Part shown: piece by piece, positions 2,966 through 42,200 of the stretch
Position numbering within the stretch: position 1 is the first letter of the stretch
Layout: each line of letters opens with the position of its first letter
Source of the DNA: Planctomycetia bacterium
GTDB taxonomy: Bacteria; Planctomycetota; Planctomycetia; JALXBF01; JBGPMX01
DNA length: 64,000 nt
Direction of reading: 5' to 3'
NCBI GenBank assembly: GCA_036758585.1
Contig: DAIOWH010000003.1
Span: 6,152-70,151, forward strand
Position numbers and translations under genes: made by a program
Notes under the pieces: model-generated
Seen by the model: only the letters and a program-made list of their open reading frames with translations
Told to the model about the DNA's origin: nothing
Databases searched by the model: none

Positions 2966-3108
2966 TGCGCTCCACACTGAAAGGGGTTTGAATTCGTTTA
3001 ACCCGCAGCCGCAGGCGAGGCACAACCAACGCCAGCCATGCCTCGCCTGCGGCTGCGGGTTAAACGACCGAAGCCGACTTCAGACCCTATTCAGTGTGGA
3101 GCGGTACT
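2966..3108. repeat. nested inverted repeat: perfect 26-bp stem / 16-nt loop hairpin (2997-3064) inside a 14-bp outer inverted repeat (2969-2982 / 3092-3105)
   Basis: TTTAACCCGCAGCCGCAGGCGAGGCA ... TGCCTCGCCTGCGGCTGCGGGTTAAA are exact reverse complements; CGCTCCACACTGAA / TTCAGTGTGGAGCG likewise; lies ~100-240 bp upstream of the giant-gene start. Confidence 0.85.
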
Positions 3109-3193
3109 AAGTCGTCCCGACGCGGCCTGTCGTGCATGGTCGCAAGGCGGGGATGCGTGACCGGGTTCAGTTCGAGGGGAAGAAGACGTCACC

Positions 3194-3198
3194 GAGGT
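3194..3198 (+). promoter_or_regulatory. Shine-Dalgarno GAGGT, 6 nt upstream of ATG 3205
   Basis: accGAGGTaagctcATG; same GAGGT core also precedes the second giant gene. Confidence 0.5.
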
Positions 3199-3204
3199 AA
3201 GCTC

Positions 3205-18200: not shown

Positions 18201-21200
18201 CGGGCTGGACAATCCTCAGGGGCTGCGTTTCGGTCCGGACGTCAATGGCGACGGCGTTCGCGACTTGTATGTGGCCAGTGGCGACACGGACCAAGTGTTG
18301 GTCTTTAACGGTGCAAACGGGGCCGCGATCAACCAGCCGGCGGGCACGCCGCCGATCTCCAACAGCGTCTTTGTCGCGGCCGGTACGTTGCTCGACCAGC
18401 CGACCTACCTGGAGTTCGGTCCCGACCTGATGCTCTACGTGGCGGGCGGATTGACGAGCAACGTGAACCGTTACGTAGGCGCCACTGGGGCGTACCTCGA
18501 CGAGTTCGTGCCGGCCGCGGGCGACGTGACGCTGTCGAACGCCCAAGGGCTGGCCTTCAGCTCGACCGGCCAGTTGTTCATCAGCAGCTTCGGAAACGAC
18601 CGTGTGCTGCAGGCGGGTCATTTCGTGGCCGGCGCCCTGTTCAAGCCGGGGCTGGTGGCCCCGCAGTTCGTGGTTCCGGCGAGCGGCCTCAACGCGCCGC
18701 AAGGCATCGCTGTCGGTCCGGATTACAATGCCGACGGCGTCAATGATGTCTACGTCGCGAGCGGCGGTATTGCCAACACGATCCAAGTATTCGACGGAAG
18801 CAGCGGCGCACCGCTGGGCGACTGGCTGGGATTGGCGCCGGTTCAGCCCAACTCACTGCCGACGGCCCCCACCGGCATCGTGTTCGGTCCGGCCGGCGTG
18901 GGCGGTCACCTGTTTGTTTCGAGTTCCGGCACCAACCGAGTCAAGCGTTACGACGACGCCAACGGCAACTTCGTCGGCGACTTCACTCCGACCGTGCCGG
19001 GTACACCCGCAGGCTTCACCGCTCCGACCGGTCTGGTGTTCGGCAACGACATCAACGCAGGTGGTGGCCCCGAACTGTTCGTGGCCAGTTCCACAGGCAA
19101 CGCGATCTTTGCCTTTGACGACACAAGCGGCACGCAGTTCGGCGTCGGCCCGTTCGTCGCGGCGGGGTTGGCGGGCCTGTCGAACCCCGGCGGTCTGGCA
19201 ATGGGCCCCGACGTCAGCGGCGACGGTGAGCTGGATCTGTACGTGGCAAACACCGGCGGCAACAACGTGCTCGTGTTCAACGGCATGGACGGTTCGGTGA
19301 TCAATCGCAATGAAGTCATCAACAGCCTATACGTGCCCGCCGGATCGGGCGGCTTGGCGTCGCCGCGCGACCTGAAGTTCGGGCCCGACGGCCGGCTTTA
19401 CGTCACCAGTTTCACGACGAACAACGTACTCGTGTTCAACGGCGTACCGGCCGGAACGGTGACGGATACCGAACCAAACAGTTCGCCGCCTCCCGCCGCC
19501 GTCGCGCAGAACATCGACTCGGCAGGCTGGAACCTCAGGTCGAACGCCAACATCGGCGACGCGGCCGTGGACACGTCCACGACCATTCCGCACGTGACGA
19601 TCAATGGCACGGGCGACGGCACGGTGGACATCTACTCGTTCACGACCCCGGCGGCCGCCACGCGAGTGATTCTCGATATCGACTTCGGATTCGAAGGCGG
19701 CATGGACGCCTTCCTGCGGGTCTACGACAACCTCGGCAACGTGCTGTTCTCGAACGACGACGCGGCCGCCACGACGGATGGTCAGGGTGGCAGTACCGAC
19801 GTAGTCGACTCGTTCCTCGACATCCCCAACATTGGCGCGGCGGGGACCTACTTTGTTGAGGTCAGCAATGAGGGCGGGGTTGGCGGCGGGGCCCCGATCA
19901 ATGCCGGCGAGACGTATCAGTTGCAAGTGTCGATCGTGGGGCACACGGGCGGCGGCGGAACGTCCTTCGAGGACGATTTCGTGTTCACCGGCAGCGGCGG
20001 ACTTGCCGGGCCGACCTACATGACATTCGACACCAGCACGCCAGGCAGCGCGCTGTACGTCAGTTCGCTGACCGGCAACGCGGTGTACCGCTACAACGGG
20101 CCGTACCTGCCCGAATCGACCTTCCTGAGCCAGTTCGTCACCACAGGCAGTGGCGGCTTGAACGTGCCGCGCGGCGTGCTGTTCGGTCCGGACGGAAACC
20201 TCTATGTGGCCAGCGCGTCGGCCGGGCTCGACCAGATTCTGGAATACGATGGCGTGACCGGCGCGTCGGTGGGCGCTTTTGCCACCGGCGGCGGGTTGAA
20301 TGATCCCCGCGAAATGGCCTGGGGGCCTGACGGCAACTTGTACGTTGCCAATAACGGCGGCGACGACGTTATCCAGATCAATTTCCTCACGGGCGCGGTT
20401 AGCCAGTTCGTGGCATCCGGTTCGGCGGGACTTGCCAATCCGTCAGGAATCACGTTTGGCACGGACGGGAATCTGTACGTGACAAGCACAGTGTTCGGAT
20501 TCGGTGGAGATGCCACGAGCTCAATCGTGAAGCGGTACCAAGGGCCGAATGGAGCGATGCCCGGTGGTTCGCTCGGCGATTTTGTCACGAATAACAGTGG
20601 CGGTCTGGACGATCCGCGAGATCTGATCTTCGGAACGGACCTGAACGGAGACAATGTTCCCGAGCTCTTCGTGTCGAGCGACGACAACGACTCGGTTCGA
20701 GTGTACGACGGCACTTCCGGCGCGCCGGTGGACATCGGCCTCGGGGCGGGCCTGTTCGTCTCCAATGCCGCGACACCTTCGGCCGGGCTGGATGCTCCAC
20801 GCGGGCTGCTGTTTGGTGAAGACGGAAACCTGTATGTTTCAAACCAGGACATTGATGAAGTTCGCCGGTTCAGCGGTCTGACCGGCTTGCTACTTGACAT
20901 CTACGCTAGTGGCAGCTTGCTGGACAGTCCGCAAGGCCTGACATTCGGCCTCGATGGCAACCTCTACGTCGCGGGCGGCAACCCGTTCGGCGGCGGCAGC
21001 ACCAACGACGTGAAGCGGTTCGCACCGTACCCGGTGAGTTCGGGGAGTCTCGGGGTAACGAGCAGCATTGTTCTGCGCGGCAACTTCGACGGAAACGCGG
21101 GCGACGAGATCGCGCTGTTTTCTCAGGCGGCCGGTTCGTTCAGCGTCGACCTGGACGACTCGATGCGCGGCAGCGGAACCATTATCGGCGGCGGCGAGAC

Positions 21201-24200
21201 GATCACAGGCTGGCCGGCCGGCGCCACGGTTCAGCCGATTGTGGGCGACTGGGATCCGGCCGGGATCAGGCCGCCCGACGGCATCGACGACCTGGGCACC
21301 TACGACACCGAGACGGACCCGGCCGATGCAGACAGTCGTACGTTCCACCTCGACCTGAACGGCAACGAGCAAGACGACGACGGCACGATCAACTTCACGA
21401 CGACGTTGCCAACTCGCGGGCCCACGCTGCCGGTGGTCGGTCATTGGGATCCGGCTGTCTTCGGCACCCAGATCGGCGTGGCAGGGTTTTCCAGCCGCGC
21501 GACGTGGTCTCAAACGAACTTTGCGTCGGGCACGGCCGTGGCCACCCTGGGCTTCCAATCGGTGACCGGTCTCGACTTTGCCGACTTCGGCCCGACCGGT
21601 CGCTCGGGCAGCGGCACGCTGTACGGCACCGCCACGCGCAACGAGAACGTGCCCGGCCTCGCCGCGGCACAGCGCTCGCAGGGCATGATCGTCATCCACC
21701 CGCAGGTGTTGGCCGACCCGCGCGGCAACGTCCCGACCGCGGCAAACGCCGGGTTCGTCGGATTCTTCAAGACCGGCCCGTTCTCAGCGTCGATCTTCGA
21801 GGCCAACTCGGTCGCCGTCACCACGTGCTCCACACCCGCGCCGGCCGGCTTGGGCGCGGTGCAGTGCCCGATCAATCCCGATTCATACAACACGATCGTG
21901 TTCGGTCGGCCCAGCGTCTACGACCTCGACGCCGACTCGCGGCCCGACGTAGTCACCGCCAACGCCGGCACGCAGCAAGGCGCGGCCGCCACCGGCGACA
22001 ACGTCTCGGTGCTGTTCAATACCACGAATATCGCCGGCCAGGGTACGCTCGCGCCGACGCCCAACGCGACCGTCGACACCGCCACGGGCGTCACCTTCCG
22101 CGCGCCCGAACGGTTCGCAACCACCGTGCTCGATCCGACCACCGGTCTGCCGGTGCGCGGCATCGACCCGCACGACCTGAGCCTGGTCGACACCGGCGGC
22201 CCGCGATCGCTGATCAATGACGTCGACGGCGACGGCGTTTTTGACGCGGCCAGCGACGCGAGCGTGCCGATCCGCGACATCACCACGGTCAACCGATTCC
22301 TCGGCGACGTCAGCACGCTGGTGAACCAGAATCCCACGTCGCTGCTGGCCGAGGCGCTCGATGCGCCGAGCACGACGTGTACGGGGGCCGGGCCGACCAA
22401 CTTCGCCACCGGGGCCGTGGCCGGCGCCTGGGGAATCGACAACACGTTCGGCCAGGGATTCGGCGAATGGAAGTGCAGCAATGGCCGATCGCTGACGCTC
22501 GGCCACACGCCGCTCCAGAGCTTCTACTACGGCGGCAACGAGACGTCGGTCGGCGGCGGCAGCTACAGCGCCAGCACCGAAGGCGTGCTGTACACTCGCG
22601 ACGTCGTGCTGCCGGTCGTCGGACCGGGCCAGCAGATCGTGCTCAACTTCAACAGCTTCCTGTCGATGGAGGCGGGCGGCGAGATCGCCGAGGTGTTCGC
22701 CGTGGACGCGACCACGCTGGCCCCGATCACCAACAACCCGAACAACTCGGCCGGCCAGCAGGCGGTGTCACAGTTTGTGGCCCGCGCCGCCGATGGCACG
22801 CTGAACGCCAACAGCGGCGCGTTCGTCGCCGAGAGCTTCGACATATCGCGGTTCCAACAGATGAACGTGCGGTTCGCGTTCCGGTTCCGCGCCAACGCCG
22901 CCGTCGAACTGGAAGGCTGGTACGTCGACGACCTGGTGGTGACGCCCAGCCAGTTCCTGCCGCACAGCGCCTCGCCGTTCCCAGTGGGCCGCGAGCGCGA
23001 CCAGGCGGGCCCGGTCGCCATCGTCGCCGGCCACATGAACGACGACAACAACGACGGCGTGCTTGGCCAGGTGTTCGATCGCGACGGCCGCATCGTCCGC
23101 AACGACTCGATCGACTTCCTGACGGCCAACAGCGAAGACGGTTACACGCTGCCCGAAGCGGTCCGGCCTCAAGGGCGGTTGCAGATCAAGAATTCAACGT
23201 TCTTGCACTCGTCGGCCTCGGCGCTGGAACTCGGACCTACCACGGCGGTCGTCTGCAGCGGCGGTGCGCCGCCGAACAACAACCCGCCGTGCAGCCAGCC
23301 GACGCCCGACGGAATGCGCCTGTTGCCGGTCGCCACCGACCTGGCGCCCGGCGTCGAGGTGCTGAACAACGTGTTCATCGCCAACACCACCGGCGTGCGC
23401 CTGCAGGGCAATCTGTCGGCGACGAACACCGCGCAGTTCCCGCCCGCTACGTCGATACCGAAACCGTTTGCACACATCGTCAACAACAGCTTCTCGCGCA
23501 ATGGGACCGGCATCAACGTTTCCGACGGCGGCGGCCCGACGATTCGCAACAACTCGATCGCCTACACCTCGGGCACCGGTTTGGCGGTCGACGTCGCGTC
23601 GCAGAACACAACGATCGTCAGCTTCAACCTGTTCCATCTGAACGGCACCAACGCCACGGCCGGCTTGAACAACAACAACGCCGTGCTGGGCGACCCGCGG
23701 TACGTGAACCCGGGCGAAGACGTGAACCGCAACGGCGTGCTCGACCCCGGCGAAGACGCCGACGGCGACATGGTGCTCGACGTGGGCGACCTGCGCATCC
23801 AGGTCGGGTCCAAGGCGATCGACGCCGCGCTGTCGAACGACGACGACCGGCTCGAGGCCGCACGCAACGCCAGCAATCGCAACTCGCTGGTCGGCGGCAA
23901 CCGCGTCTTCCCCACGCCGCTGGCCAATCCGGAACGGCTGCGCCCCGAGGTGCTGTTCGGCGCCGAGCGCGTCATCACCAACGATCCGCAGCCCGGCGAC
24001 TTCGTGACGCTCGACCACGACGGGTTCGAGCGGGTCGACGACCCGAACACCACCAACGTCGGCGTCGGCACCGATCCGTTCTTCGATATCGGCGGCTACG
24101 ACCTGCGCGACCTGGTGCGCCCGCTCATCGAAAGCTTCGCCATCAGCGTGGCCAGCGACACCGGCGAACAAAACGAATCGCAGCCGTTCGTGAGCCGGCA

Positions 24201-27200
24201 AAACCAGCCCACGTTCCACGGCCTCCTGACCGACAACTCCAACGACGTCGACGGCCTGCGCGTCGAACTCGAGATAGACGGCGACGGCCTGTTCGACGAC
24301 GGCTCGGCCTTCACCAGCATCGTGCGCGACGCCGACGGCAATCCGGTGTTCCTCGCCGGCACCAGCCTGATACTGGCCGAGTTCTTCATCTCGCCCAACA
24401 CTCCGCTGGCCGATACGTCGAGCCAACTGGTCGAGGTGCGCGTGCGCGACCGCAGCGACAACGTGTCGTTCGTGCGCCGCAACTCGTTCGGCGTCGACAC
24501 GGTGACGCCTCAGGCCAACCGCGCCACGCTGCCCAGCCCGCAACAAGTGTTGATCGAACTGACCGAACCGGTGCGTCTGACCCCCGACGGACTGGTTGCC
24601 TACTATCAACTCGAGGGCAACCCAGGCTCGAACCCCATTCTGACCGCGCGCGACCTGTCGCTGTTCCTGAACCACGCGACGGCGTCGGGCACGGTCTTCA
24701 CGATCGAAGATTCCAACGTCACCGGCCAGACCCCGATCGGATGCTCGACTCTGGGCGTGAGCACCGAGTGCTCGTCGTCGAGCGCGCTGTTCCGCGGGCC
24801 GTCCGACAACTCGGCCGAGATCGAGCCGTTCCTGGTGACCGAGATGCCGACGCCGAACGCCGACCTGCTCTACCGGGCCAAGGCGCCTGGCGCGGCCGGC
24901 AACGCAATCTCGATCGAGTACCGCAATTCCGTGTTGGGCAACGCGGTGCTCGATGCGTCGGACGTCGTCATCACGGGTACGGCGGTGGTCGTGAATCTGG
25001 CCACCGACGGCGCAGGCAACGTGCTGGCGGCGAACACGGCCGCGGCGGTCCGCGACGCGATCAACGCCAGCGCGGCGGTCACCGGCGGATCGGCCTTCCT
25101 CGAGCGGGTCGTGCTGCCCACCACGAGCGACGGAACAGGCGTGGTCAGCGTGATGGGTCCGCAGTTCCTGGCCGGCTCGCGCCCGATCATTCAGGCGCCC
25201 GACAACCTCGACCAGACGCTCGACCTGTTCCCCAATGCGAGCCTGCGCACCGCGCTGCCGCTCGACGACGACGATCTGTTCTTCGTGTCCAAACTGCCCG
25301 GCCGGGCCGGCAACGGAATCCTGATCGAGTACTTCAATCCGGGCGCCAGCAACCCCACCGAGTCGGTGTCGGTCACACGCAGGCGGGCCAACCTGACGAC
25401 CAACCTGCCCGGCGCGAACAACGACCTGCGTTTCACCGCCACGGCGACAAACGACGGGGCCATCGGCAACAACATCCGCATCCGCTACGTGGTCCAGGGC
25501 GCCAACACACCGCTGTCGGTCGCTGTCAGCGGCACTGACATCACCGTCAACGCGCAGACCGACGGCTTGGGCAATGCGATCAGCACGGCCTCCCAGGTGC
25601 GCAATCTCATCCTGACCAACGGCTCGGCCGGCGCCGTCGCGGCGCGAGCTCTTGTGGGCGTTGCCCTGCCCACCGGCAACAACGGCACCGGCGTCATCAG
25701 CCCACTCGACTTCACCAACTTGTCGAACGGCACCGACACGATCCGCGTCACGCTGGCGACCGACGCCAACACCAACTCGCTCACGCTCGCGTCCACCGTG
25801 AAATCTCTGATCGAAGCCGCTACGGTCGCACCGAACAATGCCAACGATCTCGTGAGCGTCTCGTTCGCCGAGACCGGTGGCACTGACCTGGTCCACGACC
25901 TCGTTCCGCAGCGACTGGCGGGCGGCGCGGGCGAGTTCTCGATCATGATGCTCGTGAACCCGCGCGACCACGGCAACGATCCGGCCTACGGCGACCCGCT
26001 GGTGCGCCCGCTGCTGTCGAAGCACACGCTGGGCATCCAAGACGGCGGCTGGGAACTGTTCCTGGAAGACGACCTCGACAACCCCGGCAACGAGATCGCC
26101 GCGTTCCGCGTGTACCCGGTCGGCGGCAACACGACGGCCAGCTTCACCAGCGACTTCGAGGGCACCGACAACGATCTGGTGTTCACTTCGCTGGCCAAGG
26201 ACGCGACGGCCAACGACATTTCGGTGCAGTTGCTGGCGCCGGCCGCCGGCACGGCGGCGAACACCGCGCCGACGGTCAACGTGGTGCGAACACAGGCGTC
26301 TCTGACCACGGCGCTGGCCGAGGGCGAGAACGACCTGGTCTTCCAGGCCCAAATGGCCTCGCGGCCCGGCGGCACCGGCAACGCCATCCGGATCGCCTAC
26401 GTCGTCAGCGGACGCAACACGCCGCTCAGCGTGACCGTGCCGCGTGCTAGCGTCTCGGGCGTCGGCACGGTCGTCGGCCAAGACATCATCGTGAACGTCG
26501 CGACCGACGCGGCCGGTCTGCCGATCAGCACGGCCGCCGAGATCGAAAACTTCATTGAGACGGACGTGTCCCAGGGCGCTCAGGACGCCCGGGCGCTCGT
26601 GACGGTCAATCCGGCCCCCGGCAGCGACGGTACCGGCTTTGTGCGGGCGTTCCCGTTGACCAACCTCGCCGGCGGGCGCGACGAGATCCGCATCACGCTC
26701 GGCACCGACGCATCGGGCGCCATCGGCAGTTCGGCGAACGCCGTGCGCACGTTGGTCAACATGGACACGACGGCCAACACGCTCGTCGGCGTCACTCAAG
26801 CGGCCGGCAGCGCGACGGGCATCGGCCTGATCACCACGCCGATCGCGGCCCAGTTCCTCACGGGCGGCTCGAACACCCAGACGGTGCGCAGTACCGGCCG
26901 GTTGCCGATCCGCACCGGCGAGTGGCGGCACCTGACGTTCACCTACAATCCGGGCACTCAACTGTTCCGCGTCTTCGTCGACGGCCAGCTCGAACTCGAG
27001 GCCGCAACGCCCGACGAGGGCGGGTCGCAGGGCATGGCCATCTCGAACACTACGCCTTCGGTGCGCATCGGCCAGCTCGACGGGCCGTTCCCAACGTTCG
27101 ACGGCCTGATGGACGAGCTGTCGCTCTGGCGACGCGATCTGGCTCAGGAAGAGATTAACCGGTTCCGCAACCGTGAACTGCCGGTCAGCGTCGAACTGCT

Positions 27201-30200
27201 CGCGGCCGGCGGCACCAGCGACCCCAACGGCGACAACGACCTGTTCAACGACGGCAACGAAGTGGTGATCCCGATCACTTCGTTCAACGTCAACAACAGC
27301 TACTGGACCGACGCCAACCTCAACAACATCATCGACGGCAACGAAATCAAGCACCTGGTGACGCTGACCGTCGCCGACCCGCGCACACCGAACCCGCCGG
27401 TGCCGATCACGCCCGGCGAGCTGGCGACCGATCGCTACCAACTGCGGCTGCTGAGCAACGCGGCCAACACCGACCAGGCCGGCAACATCCTGGACGCGGC
27501 CACCTTTGTCCTGGCGGTTGACCACAACGACAAGCCGGAATTCGCCGAGGAGTTTGGCGAGATCGTACACCGCTTCGATCCGAGCCTGACGATCACGCCG
27601 GGCGACGAGGACTGGTACAAGTTCACCGCGGCGGTGGACGGCACGGTCAGCCTGCGGCTGACGCTGAGCGACCCGCGCGGCAACGGCGTGCTCGATTGCG
27701 GCGCCGACCTGGTGTGCGGCACCGGCGACGCGGGCGACGAGGACCTGGACAACGATGGATCGCTCGATCCGGGCGAAGACCTGCCCGACGGAGTGCTGCG
27801 CGAAGACGAGACGCTGCGGCTGCAGATTTACGATTCGTCCCTGCCGACTCCGACACTGCTCGGCGAGGGCACGGTGAACGCCCTGACGTTCGAGGTGCGA
27901 CTCGACGACTTCACCACCGACGACGGACCCGGCACGGCGAACGGCCGCGAGTTCTTCATCCGCGTCTGCGGTCTGCCCACGGCGGCTGAGACGGCGACGG
28001 GCAGTCCGTTCACACCGGCGGGTTACCCCAACGGCTGCAGCGACGTATCAGGAAACGACTACAACCTCGACCTGATCGTGCACGACCGGTTCGAGCGATT
28101 GAACAGCGCGCACGAGCTTTATGCGTCGCGGCCGACGGTCAACGCGCCGCTGATGATCGTCGATTACACGTCGGCGTTGGCGCCGCCTCTGGGCAGCGCG
28201 ACCAACCGCACTGGCCCGGTCACTACGCTGACCCCGCTGGGCGACATCGACTTCGACGACTCCGGACGGCTCTACGCCGGCACGATCAACGGCGGCAACT
28301 CGATCGTCCGCCTGCACCCCGACTTCGGCTCGGTCATTCAAACGATCACGCTGTCGCCGGCGACCGGGTTCACGTTCCCCGCGCCCGGCACCGCGTCGGT
28401 GACGGCGATTGAGTTCCAGCCGGGCACGGGCGCCGTGTTCGCCGCGCTGATGTTCGGCGGCGCTGGTTCAACGTTGGCGACCGTCGATCTCTCCACCGGA
28501 CAGGTTACGCCGGTCGGCGGCGCGTTCGGCAACACAGGTGTCGGCGCTATCGGCGGCCTGGCGTTCGACCCCGCCGACCCGACGGGCGGCACGCTGCTGG
28601 CCGTCACCGAGTCGGGTGCGTCGAGCGGCCTCTTGGTAACGCTCGACCTGACGACCGGTCTGGCCACCTCGATCAACACCACGGGCTTCACCGACGTGTC
28701 GGGCCTCGAGTTCCACCCGCTCACGGGCAAGCTGTACGCGACGTTGGGCCCGAACGAGAGCACCACCGGCGCCGGCCGACCGGGCGACCTGGTGATCATC
28801 GACCCGGTGACGCCGACCTGCGGCCTCGGCACGACCGCGGTCGTCGGCGTGGTCGGCTGCGGCGGCCTGGGCACGAACGTCGCGCTCAACGGCGTGTCGT
28901 TCCGGCCGCGCGGCAACGATACGCCGATCTCGACGACCGGCCTGCCGACCAATACGACCGAAGAACTGGTTCACGTCGTGGACGCGCCGAGCAACACGCG
29001 CAACCTGACGCTGCCGCTGCACAACCCGCTCGAGACGGGCGTGCAAGACGATGAAGACTGGTACACGTTCACGGTCCGCGCCGACAACGGCCAGATCACG
29101 GTGCGCATCGACCTGCGCGACCGCAACGGCGACGGTTCACTTGGCCTCGACGAGCGGCTCGGCCTCGAGCTGTACACGCCGCTCGACCTGGTCACGCCGG
29201 TTCAGGTCGGCATCGTGTCGAACACGTTCAGCGTGGTGGCGGCCGACGTGGCGGCTGGGCGCGGCGATGTGTTCCTGGCCCGCGTCTTCGGCAACCCGGG
29301 CTTCAACGAATACGATCTGGAAATCTTCAACGACGACCGGCTCGAACCAGTGGTCACGCCCGAGGAGCTGTTCGCGACGTCGACGAATCCGGCCAAGCCG
29401 TTCACCGTGGGCGACGTCACCAGCGGCCCGCAGTTGGTTACGGTCGACACGGCGACCGCGCTGGCAACCGCGGTCGGCCAGACGCTCGCGGCTGGCAGTC
29501 CGACCACGATCGAGGCGATCGATTTCGATGTGGTCGGGAACCTGTATGGCGTGCGCAAGGTCGATGCACCGGACACGCCGGCCGGAACGGACCCCGATAC
29601 CGACGTCGACGATACGCAACTGGTCTTTATCAACCCGTCCGACGGCAGTGTCACGGGCATCGGCTTCGCGATCGATAAGATAATCACCGCGATCGAGTTC
29701 CACCCGGTCACGGGCGAGTTGTTCGGTACGGCGGTGCCGGCGGCCACGCCGAGCAACTCGGAACTGGTGCAAATCGACCAGACCACCGGCGCGGTGACGG
29801 TCATCGGTATGGGGACGACGGTCGGACCGTTGGGCGGCCTGGCGATCCATCCCGACGGCACTTTCTATGCGATCACGTCGGGCGGCGGCGTGCTGGTGCG
29901 ACTCAACACGACCACCGGCGTGGCGACGGTTATCAATCCGACGGGCTTCACCGACGTGTCGGAGCTGGAGTTCGATCCGACGAACACGTTCATGTACGGC
30001 GCGTTGGGGGATCTCGAGAACACGTCGGCGCCGGGGCTGCCCGGCGACCTGGTGCAAATCGATCCGTTCGACGCCAGCAACCCCGTCGTTGTGGGCCCCA
30101 CCGGGTTCGGCGACCTGGGCGCGCTGTCGTTCCGGCCGCGGCGGTTCGGCAACGACACGACCGAGACGGCCACGAGCCTGGGCGACCTGGTGAACGTACA

Positions 30201-33200
30201 CGAGCCGAACCTGACGATCACGCGCGACGGCCTGCAGGGCGCCGCGCCGACGCGGGCCGACCAGGACTTCTACGCGTTCCGCACCACGGTGACGGGCAAG
30301 GTCTTCATCGACGTGCGGCTGCACGACCGCGACAACGACGGCGTGCTCGATCCCGACGAGAAGCCGTCGCTGCAACTGCTCGACGCGGCGGGCGCCACCG
30401 TGTTGGCCACGGGAGTGTACGACTCGACGCTCGACGACGACGGCAACGGCGTGGCCGGCCGTGCGTTCTTCGACCACGTCAGCACAGGCGGGAACAACGA
30501 CCTGCGGTTCCTGGCCGCGGCGACCGGACCGGCGGGCAACAACGTCACCATCGCGATCATCGCCCCCGGCGCGGCCAACCAGCCGCTCACGATCAATGTC
30601 GTGGGCAGCGCGATTACCGTTCAACTCGCGACCAACGCCTCGTCGGTCGTGACGACCACCGCTCAAGGGTTGATCACGGCCATCCAAAACGACGGGGCAG
30701 CCAGCAGCCTGGTGACCGTCCAGGGAACCGGCGATTTCGGCGCCGGCGGCGGTACCGTCACAGCGCTGCCGACGACGAACCTGATGGGCGGCGACACCGA
30801 CGACGGGTTCAGCGTCTACATCACCGAGGTCCCGAACGACCCGGACGCGGGTTACCGCGTGCAACAGGGCGAACGGTTCCGGATCCGTATCGGCAACGAT
30901 GAGGTGCAGACGCTCACGCTGACGGGCGGCGGCGCGACGGACACGTTCACGCTCACGTTCAACGCGGCGACCACGCCGACGCCGTTGGCGCGAACAGCCA
31001 CGGCGGCCCAGGTGCAGACGGCGCTCGAGGCCCTGGCGACCGTCGGCGGCGGCAATGTCACGGTCACCGGTCCGGCGGGCGGGCCGTACAACGTGGCGTT
31101 CCAACAGGCCCGCGGCAATGCGAACCAGCCATTGGTCACCGGCGCGGGCACCGGCGGACTGACCGTCGCGCCGACGGCCGCAGTCGAAGGCGGCAGCGCC
31201 CATGCGGTCTACGACCTGGACATCCAGAACGAAGACCGCTTCGAGTTCAATAACTCGGCCGATCCGAGCGGCAACGCGGGCTTCACACGGCCTCAAGGTC
31301 CAAACACTGTCGGGGCCAACGATGCCACGACAGGACCGACGGTGCCGGCGTTCACCTTCGGCGCGGGCACCACGCAGCCCGATGTGTTCATGCTCGGCGA
31401 TCACGTGATCGTCATGAACGACTTGAACCTGCCGGTGCGCACCAATCGCTCACCCGACGGCACGATCACGGCGTTCAACGACAACGACTTCTACCGGTTC
31501 ACTGCCGCCCGAACGGGAGTACTGCACCTACGCGTCGACCTCAACGACCTCGACGGCAACGGTACGCTCGACTCGGACGAGACGCTGTCGGTGGAGCTAT
31601 TCCGCGGCGCAGTCCTGCAGGCGGTCGCGACCGTGACCGACAGCGTGATGACCGACGGCGACGGCTTCGGCCTGTTCGTCAATGACGTCGTGGCCAGCTT
31701 GGGCGAAGTGTTTACGTTGCGTGTGTTTGGCCAAGGGCCGCTGGCGAACATTCGCGGGTTCACCGATTACGGGCTGACGCTGGGCAACCAAATCGCCATC
31801 ACTGACGACCGGTTCGACCAACCGATTTCGGCCGCGCCGGGCGATCCGCTGGGCCGCAACGATTCCAGCCTGCCCGCGGTCCGCACCGACCTCGGCGTCA
31901 TCTCGCGGTTCGACGACGACACGCTGTCGATCAGCTTCAACGACAACAACGCCAACATCAACAGCCCGCTCAGTCCGGCTGATGGCGACTGGTACCGGTT
32001 CACTGCCAACGCCACTGGCTTCCTCGACATCGGTCTCACCCTGCGCGATCTCGACAACGACACGGTTGCCAGCGCCAACGAGTTGCTCGACTACAGCCTG
32101 TACAGCGACGCCGGCGCATTCATCGGCCAGGCTTCCACGACGGTCGGCGGCCCGCTGCTGCTGTTCGGGTTCAACGAGGTCCAGCGGGTTGCTTTGAGCG
32201 GCGGCATTGGCACAGACACGTTCAATCTGACGTACACCGACGGATCTGGCCCCGAGACGACCACAGACCTTGCGCGAAACGCGACGGCGGCCAACGTCCA
32301 GGCCGCGCTCGAGGCGCTGGCCGGCATCGCGCCGGGCGACGTGTCGGTCAGCGGCGCGGACGGCGGCCCGTATACGATCACGTTCCAGGGCAATCTCGAG
32401 AAGACCGACATCGCACAACTGACGGCCGGCAGCACCGGTTCGCTCAGCGTCGCCGTCACCACCGTTACCGACGGCGGCCGAAACCTGAGCGTCACGGCGA
32501 GCGACACGTTCCTGCTGCAGGTCACAGGCACGAGCCAGCTCAACGTCAACAACTACCGGCTGGAGATTCTGAACCACGACGTGTTTGAGCGTGCGTCGTC
32601 GTCGTTCCCCGACGGCTCAGGCTCGCCCGAGCCGTATCCCGACGACCTGAACAACCGCAACGATTCGGTCGCGTCGGCCACAGATATCGGCACGATCGTA
32701 CACCGGTTCGTCGCCGACTACACGTTGTCCGACCTGACGATCGTGCCGACCGCGCTGGCCAGCCCGTTCTCGGCCACGTCGGGGCCGGCCGACACCGACT
32801 TTTTCTTGATTCAGCCGATGGCCCGCGGATCGCTGACGATGCGGATGGATCTGGACGACCCGGACGGCGACGGCACGCTGGACCCATTGGAGAATCTGCA
32901 GCTTGCGATCATGGCGCGTGGGGTCACCTGCCCGACCAGCGCCGGATTCACCGCACTGGCCACGGCCGCGTCGGTGACGGGCGCCCCGTTCAGTACGGCG
33001 ATCACGGACTTCGCCGTCAACGAGGACGAGTGTCTGTTGGTGCGCGTACGTGCGCCGCAGTTCGGAGCGCCGTTCTCGGCCAACGGCTACCGACTCCAGT
33101 TCACCAACCACGACGCCTTCGAACAGACGGCGAGTGCATTCCCAGTCGGCGATGGCATCTTCCCCGACGATCCCGACCGGCGCAACGACAACCTGCTGCA

Positions 33201-36200
33201 ACTCACCGACCTGGGCAATGCCGGCGGCGTGCCGTTCGACCTGACCATCGCCCCGCCCACGCCGTTCTTCACGGGCGCCGCCACGACGCCGAACATCCTG
33301 GTGACCAGCGAAGTCACGACGGGCGATAGCGAACTCTTTGAGTTCACGTCGGTCGGGACCCTGCGGCAGCAAGTGGCGCTGCCCTACGGGCCGGTAGGCG
33401 CCTACCCGGCCGGCGAGTTTGCGCGTGACGTCGAAGTCGACGCAGCGGGCAACATTCAGATCTACAACGGCACGTTCGGACCGTTCCTGACCACCGTCGA
33501 CCAGTCGTTCACCACGTTCCAGCATCAGGCTGAGGTGGGCTGGAGCACGGTCAATCGGCTGGGTTACGGCCATCTGGCGGCGTTCGGGCAATACATGTTC
33601 GCCAGCGACATGGTGACCGCAGGCGCCGGATCGCCCAATGGCGTCATTCGGTTCGACCTGGCGACCGGAGCGGCACAGCGGTTCGCGTCCGGAACCAGCT
33701 ACGGCGTCGTGGCGGCCGGGTACGACGGGCTGATCTACGCCTCGATCGGCACATCGCCGACCAGCCGCATCGACGTCTTCAACCCGACGACGCTCGCGCT
33801 CGTCCGATCGATTACGCCGGCGAGCACGGTAGACGTGGTCGGCATGGGCGTCACGTCGACCGGCGAACTGTACGTCGCCGACCTCGCCGCCCAGGTCGTG
33901 CGGTTTGACGGCACGGGCGCCGAGTTGGGCCGGCTCGACGTCTCTGCGCTGGTCACGAACCTCACGGACCTCGACCTGGCCGAGAATGGTCGCATCGTAC
34001 TCGGTTCCACTACGGGCGACGTCGTGCTGACCAGCACCGCGTTGTCGTTCCCGAGCCGGTTCAACATCGGTTCGGCGACTCCCGTGTACGTCGGGTTCAA
34101 CACGCCCAGCACGGCGACGCAGCCGGGCGACGTCGATTTCTTCCAGGTTCAGGCGGTCGGCACCGGTACGATCGACTTCCAGATCGATCTGCGTGACCCC
34201 GACCGCAACGGCATGTTCGACATCGCCTCCGAGGCGCTTGAGCTGGCCGTGGTCGACGCCAACGATCCGTTCGGTGCGCCGCTGGCGACTGGTACGCAGA
34301 TCACCGGCACCGCTTCGTTCCTGATCGACGACTTCGCCGTCACCCAGAACGACATCGTTGTGCTGCGTGTGCAGGGCGTCACGGGAAGCGAGGAAAACGC
34401 GTATCGGCTCAAGGTGATCGGCGACGACCGCTATGAACCGAACCCCAGCCTGTTCCCGGTCGACGACGACGGCTTCGCGGGCAACGACGCGAACGACGGC
34501 CCGTTCCCCGACGACCCCGACGGCCGCAACGATTGCACGGCGATCACGGGGCCGCGGACCAGTTGCGCGACCGACCTGGGCACGATCGTGAGCGCCATCG
34601 AAACCGGTCTGAACATTTCGGACCTGCCCAACGGCAACGCCGACGTGGATTGGTTCCGGGTCACGGCCGGCGCCCGAGGCCAACTGAACGTGTCGCTCGG
34701 ACTGGTCGACCAGAACGGCAACGGCATACTGGACACCGCCACGAGCGTACCGGCCGGCGACGAGCTGTTGGACTTCAAGGTGTACGATGCGAACGGCACC
34801 GAGCTGACGACGACCCGCACGATAAACGGGTTCGTTGTGAGCATCTCGGGGGCGACGCCGTTGTCGATTGTCGCGGCGCCGCAGACGTTCCTGATCGAGG
34901 TGTTCGGTCCCACCGTGCCGACGCCCGCTCTGACGGCGGTCAACGACTACACGCTGAGCGTTTCGGTGGACGACGTCTTTGAGGTATCGAGCAGCCTGTT
35001 CCCGCCCGGCGGCGCGTTCCCAGACGACCCGGATGGTCGCAACGACCTCGGCGCCGATTTCGCGCCATGCGACGCGGTCGCGGGCACGGGCGCGGGCCAA
35101 GTGTCTTGTATCACCGACCTGGGCCTTATTGCGCACCTGCGCAGCGCGGACTACACCGGGTCCGACCTGACGATCGCACCGTCCGGCTCTGTGGCGTCGT
35201 TTGTGCCCGACACCGACATCTTCCAAATCACGCCGACCGCGACCGGCACGATCACGGTGCGGCTGACCCAGGACGACCTCAACAACAACGGACTACTCGA
35301 CGCCAGCGAGATGCTGACGCTGGACATCGTCGACCTGGTGAATCCGCTGGGCGCTCCGTTCGCCACGGCGAACCCGTCGCCGTTCAACCCGTTCGTGCTC
35401 GAGATACTCGATCAGCCTGCCATCGAGGGCGTGGCGATCGGACTCCGTGTACGTGGCATCACCGGCGCGCTCGAAACCAACTCCTACTCGCTTGATATTC
35501 GCAACGACGATCGCTTCGAGTTGGCCACGTCGATCGCCCCGGTGGGCGACGGCGTGATGCCGGACGACCCCGACGGGCGCAACGACAACGCGGTCGCCGC
35601 CGAAATCACCGACCTGGGCAAGTCGATTCGCGCGGTCCAGTCGGGTCTGACGATTACGCACTCGCCTGGCGACGAGGACTGGTTCAGCTACACGATGCCG
35701 ACGAACGCAAGCCTGCACGCCTTCCTGACGCTCATCGATGTCAACAACGACGGCGTCCTCAATGCCAGGGAATCGCTTGATATCGAAGTGTACGACGCAA
35801 CCGGAACCACACGGATCGATAGCTGTGCGCCGGCGGCCTGCACACCTGCGGGCTTCATGGTCGACGCCGGCTACATCGCGCTGCCGGAAGACACGCAGGT
35901 GCTCGTGCGCGTGGTGGGCGGCTTCGCGGGGTTCGGCAATCCGATCTCCGACGCGTATACGCTGACGCTCGTCGCCGACGACCGCTTCGACCTGCCGACC
36001 TATCCCGGCCCGGTGCCGCCCAACGATCCGAACGGGCGCAACGACAGCGACGCCGCCGGGTCTGTTACCGATTTCGGCGAGGTCGTACACACCGTCGAGG
36101 ATCTGCTGACGCTGCCGCTCGGCGACCAGGACTGGTTCAAGATTCAGGCCGCGGTGGACGGGTCGATCAGCGTGCGCATTCGGCTCGACGACGTGGACGG

Positions 36201-39200
36201 CAATAACGCGTTGGACACGACCGAGGTGCTGCGGCTGGAGTTGTACGAGGACAACGGCGGCGCGGCCGGCGCCCTGTTGGCCGTCGGCGCGCTCGACGCC
36301 GCGACCCGCCAGGTCTCGATCAACGGGTTCCCGGCGTCGGCGGGCGACACGTTCTTCGCGCACGTGACTGAGGAACTGAATCTGCCGTCGGTGACATTTG
36401 CGGCCTCGTCGGTGCCGTTCGTCGACGTGGTGGTGATCGTCGACGAATCGGGCAGCATGGCCGGCGAGCATGCGTTCCTGCAGACGTTCATTCCCGATCT
36501 GGAACTTGGCCTGACCGCCGCGGGCGTGGGTGCCGGGGCCGGACCCAACCGCTACGGCCTCTTGGGCTATGGCGGCGGCGCTCCCAGCGGGATCGTCCCG
36601 GTGGGTGCGGGTGGAGCGCTGTTTGGCACCGATGCCGAGTTTGCCGCCGCCGCAGCCACGCTGGTCACAGTCGCAGGGCTGGCCGACGGATACCCGGCGA
36701 TCGACCAGGCGCTAAAGAGTTATATCTTGCGGCCGACCGCCAAGAAGCTGTTCTTCCTGGTGACGGATACGAACCGTGAAGGGGCCAACCCGGCGTTCAC
36801 ATTCGCCGGCATACTCGCGTCGCTCACGACTGCGGGCGTCACGCTGGACGGCATCTTGAATGTCAACATTGAAGACGCCACGGGCAACGTGGCCCTCGCT
36901 CTGGCCTTCGACACCACGGTCTACATTGCGGACGGCTTGGGCGGGTTCACCAGCAGCACCGGCGGCGTGACGACGTGCCCCGGCCCGTTCGGCACGTGCC
37001 AACAGATTGTTAATCAGTATGTGGATCTGAGCTTTTCCACCGGCGGGACGATAGGCGACCTCAACCAACTTCGCGCAGGTGGGTTGACGGCGACGTCGTT
37101 CAGCAACGCTCTCGTCAGTGCTATTGTGACGAGCGTATCGACGGGCGGCATCAGTACGATCGTCAACGGATCCAACGATGCACCGCTCGACCAGGTGGCG
37201 CCGTCGGTGGACATCAACCCGACCGACACACAGAACGTCGTGGCCGTCGCCGAGAGCGTGAACAACGCCACGAACAACGAGGCGGTGGACGCGTTCACCT
37301 CGCTGAATGCCGGCGTGGTCTACACTCGACAACGGTTCGACTCGACAACCGACTTGGACAACCTGGGCGCCGGCCGACGCTACAGCCCCTCGGTGGCGTT
37401 CGACGGCAACGGGATCGTGTACGTGGCCTATGCGTTTGACGACCGTGCCGTCACAACTCCGGTCCGCCGCGTGGCTCTGTTCCGCAGCACCGACGGCGGC
37501 TTGAACTTCGGCGCTCCGGTGCTGTTCACCCCCACGGCAGGTACGTCGATCGAAGGCGTCACGCTCGCCACCGGTGTGGACGCCAGTCTCGCCACTCAGC
37601 AGGACGTATACGTTGCTTGGACCGAACTGGACGCGACGGGTACGCCGGCGCGCATCCGTGTTGCCGGCTCGCAGTCGTCGAACGCGGGCGGCGCCATGAC
37701 GCTGAGCTTCACGACCCAGAATGTATCGTCGTTCGGTCAACCGCGCCAGCCCGACCTGGTGGTCGACGGCGCCGGGCGGCTGCTTGCAACCTGGGTCGAC
37801 CACGCGGCGAACCCCGACGTCATCCGAGTGGCCGTGGATACGGACGGCCTCGGCGGCATCGCCAACTTCTCTCCGACGTTGGCGGCCACCGTGGTGACGA
37901 CCAACCACGTCGGCGTCCGTCATCCAATTCCGGCACAGCCCGAGCGCGGCGTGTCGGCAGGCCCCTCGATCGACATCGATCGATCGACCGGACCCAACGC
38001 GGGACGGGTTTACATCGCGTACACCGAGCGAGGACTGGCCGACGCCTCGGACCCGACCAACTACAACGACCTCGACACGTTCCTGCAGTTCAGCGATGAC
38101 GCCGCGCTCGCCGCAGCGTCGTGGAGTCAGCGGCGTCGGATCAACGTGCGAAACTCGGCCAGCCAGTTCAACGTGGCCATCGACGTCGATCCGACGAACG
38201 GCCAGGTGCTGGCCAGTTGGTACGACGCGCGCGGGGGGGGCGGCAACACCACGATCTTCCCGTTCGTAGCGCAAAGCGTCGACGGCGGCGTCACGTTCCG
38301 GCGCGAGTCGGCCGTGGCGCAGAACGCCTCGGATCAGAGCGGCGCGACCGCCGAACCGGCCCAGGATTTCGGCGACCGGCTCGGCATCGCGGCGTTTGGC
38401 GGCGTCGTTCAGTTGGTCTGGGCCGACAACAGCACGGTGGCCGCGGATCTCGAAATGCTCAGCACCCGCGTGCAACTCGTGCGCGGCGAGAACGCCTACC
38501 GCATCGAGGTGTTCAGCAACGACGCCGAGGAGGCGGACGGGTTCGACAGGCTGTTCGACCAGGGCCAAGACGCTGCGGGCGAGGTTCGCGAGTCGGCGAA
38601 CATGCTTGCATCGACCGGCGGACTCGCCGCCGGAGCGGCCGGCCGCCTGTTGAGGATCGATCCCGACGACGCAACGGTGCGCGACCAGACGCCGCCCGTC
38701 AGCGTGGTCCTCGACGCCGTGGGCGACGTCGATTTCAGTGCGAACGGCCAACTCGTCGGCGGCACCAGCTTCGTCGACGTGGCGAACCCCGGCAGCGGGC
38801 TTGTGCTGATCGATTCCGGCACGGGCGGCGTCTACCGCAACTTCACCTTGGTCGGAGCTGGACTGCCCACGGTATTCTCGATTACCGCCGTCGAGTTTGC
38901 GCCGAGCGGCCTGTTGTTCCTGGCGATCGACTTCGATCCGGCCGTGGATGGTTCCTCATCGCGACTCGGCACGACCTCACTTGCGGCTTGCACAGCCACT
39001 CAGTGCACGGTCAATGTGCTGGGCATCACCAACGTGGGTGAGATCGGCGGCCTGGCGTTCAACCCCGTGTCCGGCGAGTTGCTCGGCGTTACCAGCACAG
39101 CGGTTAGCGGCGGCAGCCTGGTGCGACTGAGCACAATCGACGGCCAGGCCACGCTGCAGGGAGTGACGGGTTACAGCGATGTCACCGGCTTGGAGTTCTC

Positions 39201-42200
39201 GCCCGACGGCCTGACGCTCTACGGCGTGCTCGGCGCCGCCGAGCCTGCCGCAGCGCCGGGCGCTGCGGGCGACTTGGTGGTGATCGACGCGTTCACAGGC
39301 CAGGGCATCGCCGTAGTGGGCAACATCAGCGCGCCCACCGGCCTGACCGGCGTCACGTTCCGCCCGGCGCTAAACGACAACCCAACGGCCTCCACATCGC
39401 TGGGCAGGGCGCTCGAGATCGCTCGCAGCCCGTCCGTCCCGACGCAATCGCTGACGCTCACGCGCGGCGAAGACGACTGGTTCCGAGTTCAAGCGGTCGC
39501 CGACGGCGGCTTGACCGTGCGAGTCGATTTGCGCGATGCGGTGAACGCCGGCAACCTCGATCCGGGTGAACGGGTCGCGGTCGAACTCTACGACGCCGAC
39601 GGCGCGACTCTGCTGGCCACGGGCCTGATCGACGACCTCCGGAGCGCGGTCGACGGCACTGGGTTCGGCGTCGACCTGCGGCACTACCCGAACGATCCCA
39701 CAACGCCTCCTGTACAGGCCGGCGAGTTTTACCTGGTGCGCGTCTTCAGCAGCAGCTTCGACGCCAACGCCGACGGCGTGGACAACGACGCCGACGGCCT
39801 GACCGACGAGGGAGACGAGTTTGTTCCGGGTTCCAACGAGTACGACATCACGGTCCAAAGTGAAGACCGGTTCGACCAGGTGCTGTCGCCGTCTCAGTTG
39901 ATCGCGTCAGAGAGCGCCGGCGCGGCCGAGCTGTTCGTGTTGGACGCCGCCACAGCCGCGGCCACACTCGCGTCGGCCCTCGCGCCCAATAGCGCGCCCG
40001 ACAGCCTGGCGTTCCATCCGAGCGGCCTGCTCTATGCCGAGCGGACCAATGGTGCGCTGCACGAACTGATGGTCATCAATCCAGAATCGGGCGTGCAGAC
40101 AACCATCGACGGCGCCATTCCCGACGCGGCCGACGTCAACATCGCCGCCGGCGCGACGATCACGGCGCTGGCTGTACATCCCAGAACCTTCCAGTTGTTC
40201 GGCGCGGTCGTCAACCCAGGCACTCCCGCGACTTCAACGCTCGTTACGATCGACCCCAACAACGGGCGAGTCACACCGGTCAACCCGATTCCCACGCTCA
40301 CGGGAGTGGGCGCCATCGGCGGACTGGCGTTCGATGCAACGGGCACGATCTTGTACGGCGTGAGCACGATCTTCGGCGGCATCTTGGTTACGCTGGACAC
40401 GACGACCGGCGTGGCCACGACCATCGGATCGAACGGCCTCGGCGTGCAAGACTTCTCCGGCCTGACGTTTGACTCGACGGCCGGCGCGACCGGTACGCTG
40501 TACGGTGTCGTATCCGCCTCGGATCCTGCGCTGCCGGGTCGGTTGGTGACCTTTGACGTAGCGACTGGCGCGGCGACATTGGTCGGCAACACCGGCCTTG
40601 CGGTGACTGGCGTCGCAGCCCGTCCGGCGCGATTCAGCAACGACATTCGGCAACTGGCCACGCCACTCGGTCCGATCAACAGCCGTAGCGAGGCCGTCTT
40701 GTCGCTGCACGAAGGCGATGAGGATTGGTACAGCTTTTCGATGGCCGTCGCCGGCCGGCTCGAAGTCCGGCTCGATCTGGACGACTTCAACCGCAACTCC
40801 ACGTTCGACGCGGCCGAGCAACTGAAGTTCGAGGTGATTGACGCGGTCTCGGGCGCCGTGCTGGCGTCGAGTGCGATCGCGGGCCGCATCGACGCCACGC
40901 TCGACGACGACCTGAACTCCGTGCCGTTCCCGACCGACGCGGGCGACGATGGGTTCAGCATCGTGGTCGACACGCTGCGGTTTGAGGCCGACCGGCTGCT
41001 CATGGTCCGCGTGTTCGGGCCGGCGAATGAAGTGAACCTCTACGACCTGAACATCAGCGTCGCGTTGCCCGACTCGCGCGGCCCGCGCGTGACTACGGTC
41101 ACACCGGTGCACACGTCGTTCGTAGCGGCGTCGCCGACTCAGCTCGTGATCGATCTGAACGAGAATCTCGACGCCGTGCTGGCCGCGACCGCGGCAAGCT
41201 ACCGCCTGATTCGGTCGGGCGGCGACGGCGTCATCCCCGGCGGCCCGGCGGCCGACGTCGACGTGGCCGGTACGTTCGGCGCCATCGCGTACACGCCCGG
41301 CACACAGGCAACACGAACGATCAACCAGGCTGCGGCGAACGACGCGCTTGACTACACTGCGCGAGCGGCGGGCACCGACGGGAACCGCATTCGCATCCAG
41401 TATCGCACCCCGGCCCCGAATCGGCCGACCGAGACCGTGACGGTCGACGCGACCACCAACTTCCCGTTCATCAACATCATCGTCGACCTGGCCACCAACG
41501 CGGGCGGCACCAGCACCAGCAGCGCCGCGGCCGTCCGCCAGGCGATCCAAACTACTCCGGCCGCCTCGGCCCTGATCGACGTCCAGTTCACCGTGGGCAA
41601 CAACGGCACGGGGACGGTCACGGCGCTCGGGTTGACCGCGCTGCAAGGCGGCGCCGCGTCGCGCGTCGCCATCCCGATCACCGGCGGGCTGCCCGACGAC
41701 CTCTACCAGTTCTCGATCAACTCGACCAGCGGCGTGCGCGACGAACTCGGCAACGCCCTCGACGGCGAGAACCCCGGCTCACTGCCCGACGCCGACCCGA
41801 CAACCGGCCTGCCGTCGGGCGATGCGTTCGTGGGCGGCGACTTTGTCAGCCTGTTCACGATCGATACCGTGCAGCCTACGATCATCGACGTGGTCGATGT
41901 CATGCCCGACCCCGGCACGGCGGCGGTAAGCACCATCGACGTCGAGCTGTCTGAGGTCGTCGACCTGGCGACGTTCGACTTTGGCGATGTTTCGCTGACT
42001 CGCGACGGCGGCTCGGTCGCGCTCGACAACACCGTCACCGTGGCTCGCGTGGGAACGACGCTGTTCTACCGCATCAGCGGGCTCGACAGCTTCACCGCGC
42101 CCGACGGCGCCTATGTGCTGTGCGTCGACGCCACGATGATCCAGGACCTCGCGGGCAACGCCGGCGTGAACCCGGCGCTGCCGGCCGACCGGTGCGACGA

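Follow-up and report, generated by a model that had tools for sequence, protein, structure and literature searches.

This locus raises the question of what kind of module is repeated inside two neighbouring giant genes of a Planctomycetia bacterium, and why every complete copy of it runs into the same second domain. The window, meaning the whole stretch of 64,000 nucleotides that was analysed (assembly GCA_036758585.1, contig DAIOWH010000003.1, positions 6,152 to 70,151), contains gene 1 at 3094..48621, a single open reading frame (ORF) of 15,175 residues, and gene 2, whose ORF is open from 48790 to the window end (>5,070 residues) with a probable ATG at 48874 (>5,040 residues from that ATG). 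Both genes, and the domains and motifs placed below, lie on the forward strand. The original prediction described a recurrent, propeller-like unit of ~250 residues, followed by a PPC-like domain and a short linker, and took the fixed pairing to be a functional cassette. The reading preferred here, with a probability of roughly 0.7, is that the units are beta-propellers of the Pfam families DUF4394 and DUF6923, which are placed as side excursions in a chain of PPC-like domains within protease-headed giant proteins, and which would bind ligands.

The repeat occurs six times. A hidden Markov model (HMM) made from five of the copies, iterated and run on both giant proteins, yields exactly six matches, four in gene 1 and two in gene 2. 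All copies that had been predicted, at least four in gene 1 and at least two in gene 2, were recovered with coordinates within ~50 nucleotides. Unit 1 spans 28117..28911 (gene 1 residues ~8342-8606), its HMM match covering residues 8353-8611 (nucleotides 28150-28926), and unit 2 spans 29365..30141 (residues ~8758-9016), with the HMM match at residues 8781-9023 (29434-30162). Units 3 and 4 are located by the HMM to gene 1 residues 11852-12097 (38647-39384) and 12280-12519 (39931-40650). In gene 2, unit 5 was found by both the HMM and BLASTP (residues 4559-4816, 62464-63237), while the HMM match of unit 6 (residues 4988-5070, 63751-64000) is cut by the window end after ~89 of the 248 profile positions. 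BLASTP of unit 1 (gene 1 residues 8349-8612) against both proteins returns the full copies with expectation values (E) of 1.5e-36, 7e-36, 1.8e-26 and 1.5e-38, and the truncated last copy at E 2.6e-05. Pairwise identity among the copies is 33-55%, with unit 3 being 55% identical to unit 5. Residues 4074-5051 of gene 2 match residues 11357-12343 of gene 1 at 45.6% identity over 1,045 columns, a stretch that spans a BNR-like region, one propeller, its PPC-like domain and the start of the next propeller. The end of the units had been given as '(S/T)FRPR..ND'. This form is exact in three of the five complete copies, but the others read TFRPAL and AARPAR, and what all of them share is R-P and then ND or NE.

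A repeat of this kind could in principle be an artefact, either because a frame happened to stay open in GC-rich DNA or because the sequence is of low complexity and holds no real domain, and the G+C content of the window (62-68%) and the long spurious ORFs on its other frames would be in line with that. Against this, an open frame of 45.5 kb is impossible by chance, Pfam domains occur along its whole length, the structural model described below is confident, and relatives come from two independent metagenomes as well as from thousands of protein clusters. By its length, its Pfam content, its relatives and the model, the artefact is refuted, and its probability is negligible.

Unit 1 with short flanks was modelled with AlphaFold2 from an alignment of 72 sequences, comprising paralogues and database relatives. 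The model has a mean predicted local distance difference test score (pLDDT) of 83.1 and a predicted template modelling score of 0.85, and it contains 16 strands arranged as four groups of four. Within a blade, strand A follows the pattern 'xGLxF', strand B 'G-LYA/GV', strand C 'LVxID' and strand D 'G-x-AT-x-VG', and the consensus of the units contains five 'L-x-x-ID-x-x-TG-x-x-T-x-VG' motifs. Additional N-terminal strands lie at model residues 11-14 and 22-26 ('ELYAS' and 'LMIVD'), together with single bridge residues 31 and 34 in 'ALAPPLG', and one C-terminal strand lies at residues 270-272 in 'GVSFRPR'. As modelled, the unit is a beta-propeller, and the strand assignment points to five blades, of which four are full and a closing one would be assembled from three N-terminal strands and one C-terminal strand. 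Foldseek against the PDB retrieves beta-propellers only, with a probability of 1.0. The template modelling (TM) scores against six- and seven-bladed targets, among them LRP6, WDR5 and TolB, are only 0.4-0.52, so the unit has no close solved relative. The top matches, YWTD (LDL-receptor class B) and WD40 propellers such as LRP6 and WDR5, share the fold and the four-stranded blades, but have six or seven blades and 12-17% identity, with no family relationship. The propeller-like character ascribed to the unit is therefore borne out by both the model and the structural search.

The unit also has a family. By its profile scores, it is a divergent member of Pfam DUF4394 (PF14339) and DUF6923 (PF21959), an existing propeller family, and brings no new fold. 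A fragment with units 1 and 2 scores 39 bits against DUF6923 (cutoff 27) and 36 bits against DUF4394 (cutoff 29.6), the best match being in unit 2, which is the copy that passes the gathering scores of both families. The stretch with units 3 and 4 reaches 30.4 bits against DUF4394, above the cutoff of 29.6, and below the cutoffs are unit 1 alone (22.9 and 19.3 bits) and the stretch with units 5 and 6 (18 bits). When the units are scanned singly at E<=1, DUF4394 matches five of five and DUF6923 three of five. Compared by hhalign with 36 stand-alone proteins that carry PF21959 and/or PF14339 annotations, the profile of five units reaches a probability of 99.8% and E 4.7e-29, and the alignment is collinear (query columns 1-248, template 43-252). 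The consensus of the stand-alone relatives contains the same five blade motifs as the unit. Likewise, the Pfam families agree with the unit in length (230-234 profile positions) and in the blade motif GLAF / G-LYG / L-x-ID / TG-x-T-VG, counted five times. They differ in setting: the copies in the window are internal to giant proteins and end in 'RPxR..ND', which leads into a PPC-like domain, whereas the stand-alone proteins carry sorting tails and run from 'GLAFxPEP' into PEP-CTERM.

The claim that the unit is distinct from the NHL, FG-GAP, PD40 and BNR repeats of the same neighbourhood held, as none of these Pfam families matches any of the five units at E<=1; NHL, FG-GAP and BNR occur elsewhere in gene 1 and PD40 in an upstream gene. 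A clean match to a known beta-propeller family had been set as a refuting condition, and with the match to DUF4394/DUF6923 the novelty of the unit as an unassigned repeat is largely refuted. What had appeared to be an unclassified repeat can now be described as divergent copies of two catalogued but uncharacterised Pfam families. Tachylectin-2-type lectins (PF14517) are of similar size (~235-250 residues) and have five blades and an extracellular sugar-binding role. PF14517 matches just one of the five units, at E 0.31, and is also matched by some relatives of the unit. The best sequence match in the PDB is 5c2m, a 250-residue 'Predicted protein', at E 7e-4, with which the blade motif 'F-P-G-LYGV' is weakly shared. 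An NCBIfam scan of the propeller and PPC-like block returned nothing meaningful, and a profile search of genome contigs with the alignment of this block gave 54 pattern matches, none of which was confirmed.

Relatives of the unit are numerous. An exhaustive HMMER search of 1.84 billion representatives yields 4,880 clusters at E<=1e-3; tightening the threshold to E<=1e-10 leaves 938, and E<=1e-30 leaves 79. The five top multi-repeat matches that were scanned all match DUF6923, with a highest score of 97 bits, and four also match DUF4394, where the maximum is 136 bits. With the unit profile, a word-indexed search retrieved 67 proteins, nearly all of 260-450 residues and already annotated PF21959 and/or PF14339. 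Several of these carry PEP-CTERM (PF07589) or type IX secretion system (T9SS, PF18962) tails, and several are named Planctomycetota or Gemmatales. Four proteins of 260-285 residues, encoded on long contigs or in a 7.5-Mb genome (P0018, P0021, P0027 and P0010), each combine the propeller with a signal peptide and a PEP-CTERM-like tail. The partner domains found in relatives are extracellular and include HYDIN/ASH immunoglobulin (Ig)-like domains, TSP3, FlgD_ig, Laminin_G_3, PPC and sorting tails. Protease heads recur across the family, with S8 in gene 1, M10 in gene 2, M10 together with PPC and the unit in P0200 (932 residues), and M4 with DUF6923 and Laminin_G_3 in P0069 (3,574 residues). This suggests a recurrent architecture in which a protease is combined with a DUF4394/DUF6923 propeller. 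Signal peptides, PEP-CTERM and T9SS tails, Ig- and lectin-like partners and protease heads are the contexts from which we infer that the propeller is an extracellular binding module. That DUF4394 and DUF6923 accompany secreted proteases (S8, M10 and M4) and surface-sorting signals points to target binding.

The unit might instead be an enzyme domain, such as a five- or six-bladed propeller hydrolase, a lactonase or a PhoX-type phosphatase. The profile weakly matches PhoX (E 0.04) and the hypothetical protein 2p4o (E 0.095), and related proteins have weak SGL and SSL_N Pfam matches. These lean in this direction, but they fall well short of significance or of the gathering scores and extend over only one or two blades. 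The three invariant aspartates (D5, D182 and D218) suggest no catalytic set, two of them falling within the repeated 'xID' strand motif, and the family consists mostly of small anchored proteins with sorting tails. An enzymatic role is very improbable, and it was rejected for want of conserved catalytic residues among the invariant columns.

The second part of the question concerns the PPC-like domain. All five complete units run, after a gap of 0-4 residues, into a PPC-like domain with the motif D/E-x-D-W/F-Y/F, and the recurrence of propeller and PPC-like domain as a block is confirmed. The domain after unit 1 (28912..29328, gene 1 residues 8607-8745) carries DEDWY. The one after unit 2 lies at 30142..30561 (residues 9017-9156), and those after units 3 and 4 at 39373..39858 (residues 12094-12255) and 40639..41058 (residues 12516-12655). 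The domain after unit 5 is found in gene 2 at 63226..63684 (residues 4813-4965). A further copy precedes unit 1 at 27526..28077 (gene 1 residues 8145-8328), scores 88 bits and has the C-terminal end '...YNLDLIVHDRFE'. All of these were assigned with a locally built HMM, which finds 24 PPC-like matches in both proteins, one of them partial.

The block is conserved beyond the window. A metagenomic relative, L001 (63% identity; contig Ga0247727_10000473), is a single ORF that fills a 13.5-kb locus and, with U standing for the unit, is ordered PPC-U-PPC-U-PPC, then a PPC array, then U-PPC-U. A second metagenomic relative at 39% identity, L002 (FWPU01008433.1), is ordered U-PPC-U-PPC. P0068 (5,619 residues) mirrors gene 2. 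The junction 'G(I/L)(S/T)(F/V)RPxR(F)xN(D/E)' is kept in L001, L002, P0068, P0001 and P0175. The block of propeller and PPC-like domain is thus evolutionarily stable, but the pairing is not specific to the propeller.

These observations bear directly on the proposal that each propeller and the PPC-like domain after it make up an obligate two-domain functional cassette, selected as a unit and joined by a rigid, specific interface, which might be a composite ligand site or serve a Ca2+-controlled presentation of the propeller. The direct succession in five of five complete units, the presence of the same adjacency and conserved junction in L001, L002, P0068, P0001 and P0175, and the retention of the double block at 39% identity would all be expected of such a cassette. 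The wider distribution of the PPC-like domain speaks differently. The domain occurs 24 times, mostly without a propeller, and the 18 other full copies adjoin other modules or one another. The identity matrix shows no distinct PPC subfamily associated with propellers: among themselves the post-propeller copies are 27-47% identical, as against 21-40% with the other copies, and they form no separate clade. The 'R-ND' start of the post-propeller domains is not particular to them either, as it also precedes PPC-like copies in tandem arrays, in the form 'GRND'. Beyond this small group of relatives the pairing is lost: only seven of the 213 retrieved relatives have a PPC-like match, and in two smaller ones, P0177 and P0200, the order is reversed, with PPC before the propeller. 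A joint AlphaFold2 model of unit and PPC-like domain, built on an alignment of the five paralogues only, reaches an overall pLDDT of 68, which drops below 50 at the junction (residues 258-303) and is only 60-70 in the PPC-like domain, and offers no confident interface. An obligate cassette is thus rather unlikely, and the claim that the fixed pairing makes one was not upheld. Whether the combination exists on its own had also been raised. The propeller alone makes up many secreted proteins, but propeller and PPC-like domain together were seen only in relatives of the giant proteins or fragments of them.

A 'NDDRFE'-type linker had been said to follow each PPC-like domain. A 'DDRFE'-type motif is indeed found after three of the five post-propeller PPC domains, which are those preceding another propeller: 'NDDRLE' at 29329..29346 (gene 1 residues 8746-8751), between the last PPC-like strand and the first strand of unit 2, 'SEDRFD' after the domain that follows unit 3, and 'NNDRFD' after the domain that follows unit 5. 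It is absent after the other two (gene 1 residues 9020-9156 and 12516-12655, following units 2 and 4). Across both proteins, 'DDRFE' stands directly after the last PPC strand ('N-x-Y-x-L-x-V') in 13 of the 23 copies, where the next module is either PPC-like or a propeller, and a related motif lies ahead of all six propellers. It is a general junction. At PPC-PPC junctions, 'DDRFE' is followed by ~20 residues and then by 'PDDPDGRND', which opens the next PPC-like domain, whereas propeller exits instead read 'RPxR(F)xND'. The 'P-D-D-P-D-G-R-N-D' sites lie directly before PPC-like domains in tandem arrays, at nucleotides 33169, 34513, 35026, 35566 and 36025 in gene 1 and 57820, 58312, 59164 and 59620 in gene 2. 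This acidic motif, which is paired with 'DDRFE' ~20 residues upstream, may be a Ca2+-binding interdomain junction.

The PPC-like domains themselves are divergent. PF04151 matches 8 of the 23 aligned copies at E<=1, the best at 8e-07. The propeller-adjacent copies score ~13 bits (13.3 for the first post-propeller copy; cutoff 25.9), and the best-scoring copy in the protein reaches 26.1 bits. The local HMM overlaps the Pfam PPC calls in P0177 and P0200. In the PDB, the PPC-like profile matches collagenase chains, namely 5iku (E 0.0067) and 4hpk and 1nqj (both at E about 0.9), and model 1 of the joint prediction places seven beta strands at residues 305-398, at a pLDDT of only 60-70. The resemblance to the PPC/collagen-binding domain of clostridial collagenases (PF04151; 1nqj, 4hpk, 5iku) comprises a putative beta-sandwich of ~120-140 residues placed after protease or other modules, whose sequence opens with 'ND...A..LG', contains a strand of the form 'D-x-D-W-Y/F' and has 'N-x-Y-x-L-x-V' as its last strand. 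Unlike the collagenases, which have one or two C-terminal domains, the giant proteins contain a 24-copy chain.

Among PDB sequences, however, the PPC-like profile matches lanmodulin best, at its EF-hand loops (6mi5, E 1.5e-4), because most PPC-like copies hold an inserted canonical EF-hand-type loop. With the strict 12-residue pattern D-x-[DN]-x-[DN]-G-x-[ILVFM]-[DNSTG]-x-x-[ED], both proteins together contain 12 such loops against 0.055 expected from shuffling, mostly inside PPC-like domains. They are located at residues 6876, 8217, 8676, 9078, 9485, 9922, 10728 and 10882 of gene 1 and 1423, 1435, 3080 and 3517 of gene 2. The PPC-like domain after unit 1 carries the loop DRNGDGSLGLDE at 29119-29154 (gene 1 residue 8676), and the one after unit 2 carries DRDNDGVLDPDE at 30325-30360 (residue 9078). 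Two loops, DPDGDGTLDPLE and DPNNDGVLNADE, have proline at position 2, as in lanmodulin. Canonical PPC domains are not known to carry an inserted EF-hand-type loop. A PPC domain with such a loop could be a variant that has not been described before, and may be a more unusual element of these proteins than the propeller.

Taken together, the preferred reading of propellers as excursions from a PPC-like chain can be set out as follows. The backbone of the propeller-bearing part of both proteins would be a chain of beta-sandwiches resembling PPC/collagen-binding domains, and in the two neighbouring giants, with their S8 and M10 heads, the propellers appear to be embedded always as a tandem pair, [propeller-PPC]x2. 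According to the strand assignment, the propeller would close by pairing of its N-terminal strands with its C-terminal strand. Since the closing blade uses both termini, entry and exit should adjoin, and the propeller could replace the ~20-residue inter-PPC linker as a side excursion of the form 'DDRFE - propeller - RPxR..ND'. The apparently fixed pairing with PPC would then arise because the propeller sits in place of an inter-PPC linker. Its recurrence would stem from segmental duplication of the double block, both within gene 1 and between the two genes. In functional terms, the propellers would bind a glycan or protein ligand and so tether a secreted or surface protease to its target. The PPC-like domains would serve as rigid spacers, and the copies with EF-hand-type loops, given their predicted metal binding, would form a Ca2+-stiffened stalk. 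As such loops are present in many of the PPC-like domains, stiffening by Ca2+ is probable.

Several points weigh against this reading. The blade number derives from the strand pattern and motif counts, and the pLDDT of the closing-blade region is lower, at about 50-60. Three of the five units score under the Pfam gathering thresholds when scanned singly. Invariant residues of the unit are nearly all glycine or hydrophobic and point to no binding site. A literature search on DUF4394 (PF14339, IPR025507) and DUF6923 (PF21959) found no publication, and the proposed binding role consequently follows from context only. The putative export and extracellular location of the giant proteins are suggested by the types of domain they contain. 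Finally, the strong conservation of the 'RPxR(F)xND' exit in relatives leaves room for a specific, rigid interface.

A bolder variant would accept such an interface. It holds that a small clade of protease-headed giants, probably planctomycete, has a propeller rigidly fused, by way of the conserved 'RPxR(F)xND' junction, to an EF-loop PPC domain as a ligand-binding cassette whose two domains would work jointly under the control of a metal, either Ca2+ or possibly a lanthanide. This is a long shot. If true, the metal-regulated cassette would be a new adhesion or targeting module and would offer a first lead to the function of two large DUF families. With the side-excursion reading, the pairing with PPC would reflect how a giant modular protein is built. 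What is new here is the occurrence of divergent DUF4394/DUF6923 members in an unusual giant-protein architecture; the family itself is already catalogued. This adds context to a family that comprises thousands of clusters, and its wider value is modest.

Pfam domain scans of both giant proteins were made on pieces of 1,000 residues and outline their overall architecture. Gene 1 begins with a basic stretch, followed by 'LERLEERVLLS' (residue 102, nucleotide 3397) and a Peptidase_S8 head. Downstream of S8, Pfam recognises BNR_2, FG-GAP, NHL, PPC, beta-helix and Laminin_G_3, with long Pfam-free stretches, and further parts of the protein comprise the PPC-like array, the four DUF4394/DUF6923-type propellers, a VWA-like region and a Big_13 tail. 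Gene 2 similarly opens with a basic stretch and 'LERLEERVLLA' (nucleotide 48961), followed by a Peptidase_M10 head, PPC-like copies, beta-helix, Laminin_G_3, NIDO and the two propeller units. The motif 'LERLEERVLL(S/A)' may correspond to one that is often present at the N-terminus of large secreted proteins in planctomycetes. Long stretches of gene 1, at 6094-9093 and 30094-42093, have no Pfam match at E<=0.01 in these scans. Within the latter, 31396-36438 is largely a divergent PPC-like array that is detected only by the local HMM.

The region preceding unit 3 (~36439-38500, gene 1 residues 11116-11800) opens with a VWA-type 'DESGS' motif, similar to a metal-ion-dependent adhesion site. This is followed by ~450 residues of BNR/Asp-box-like 'S-x-D-G-G-x-x-F' repeats ahead of unit 3. 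The BNR-like part is paralogous between the two genes (~61000-62400 in gene 2) and falls within the 45.6% match described above. The Pfam scan reported no match for the pieces of this VWA- and BNR-like region. The C-terminal ~2,100 residues of gene 1 (42094-48618) form a dense array of Big_13/Big_6 Ig-like domains with at least 16 Big_13 stretches, scoring 478 and 523 bits.

The upstream neighbours of gene 1 are a DUF1501 gene and a PD40 propeller gene. Just 5' of gene 1, a hairpin at 2968-3103 overlaps its first possible start codon. Rfam assigns no real family to it and gives just sub-threshold microRNA look-alikes. The inner stem of the hairpin is perfect over 29 bp (2994-3022 / 3039-3067) with a loop of 16 nucleotides, and the outer stem, also of 29 bp, is 86% complementary (2968-2996 / 3075-3103). 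Translation of gene 1 probably begins at an ATG further downstream.

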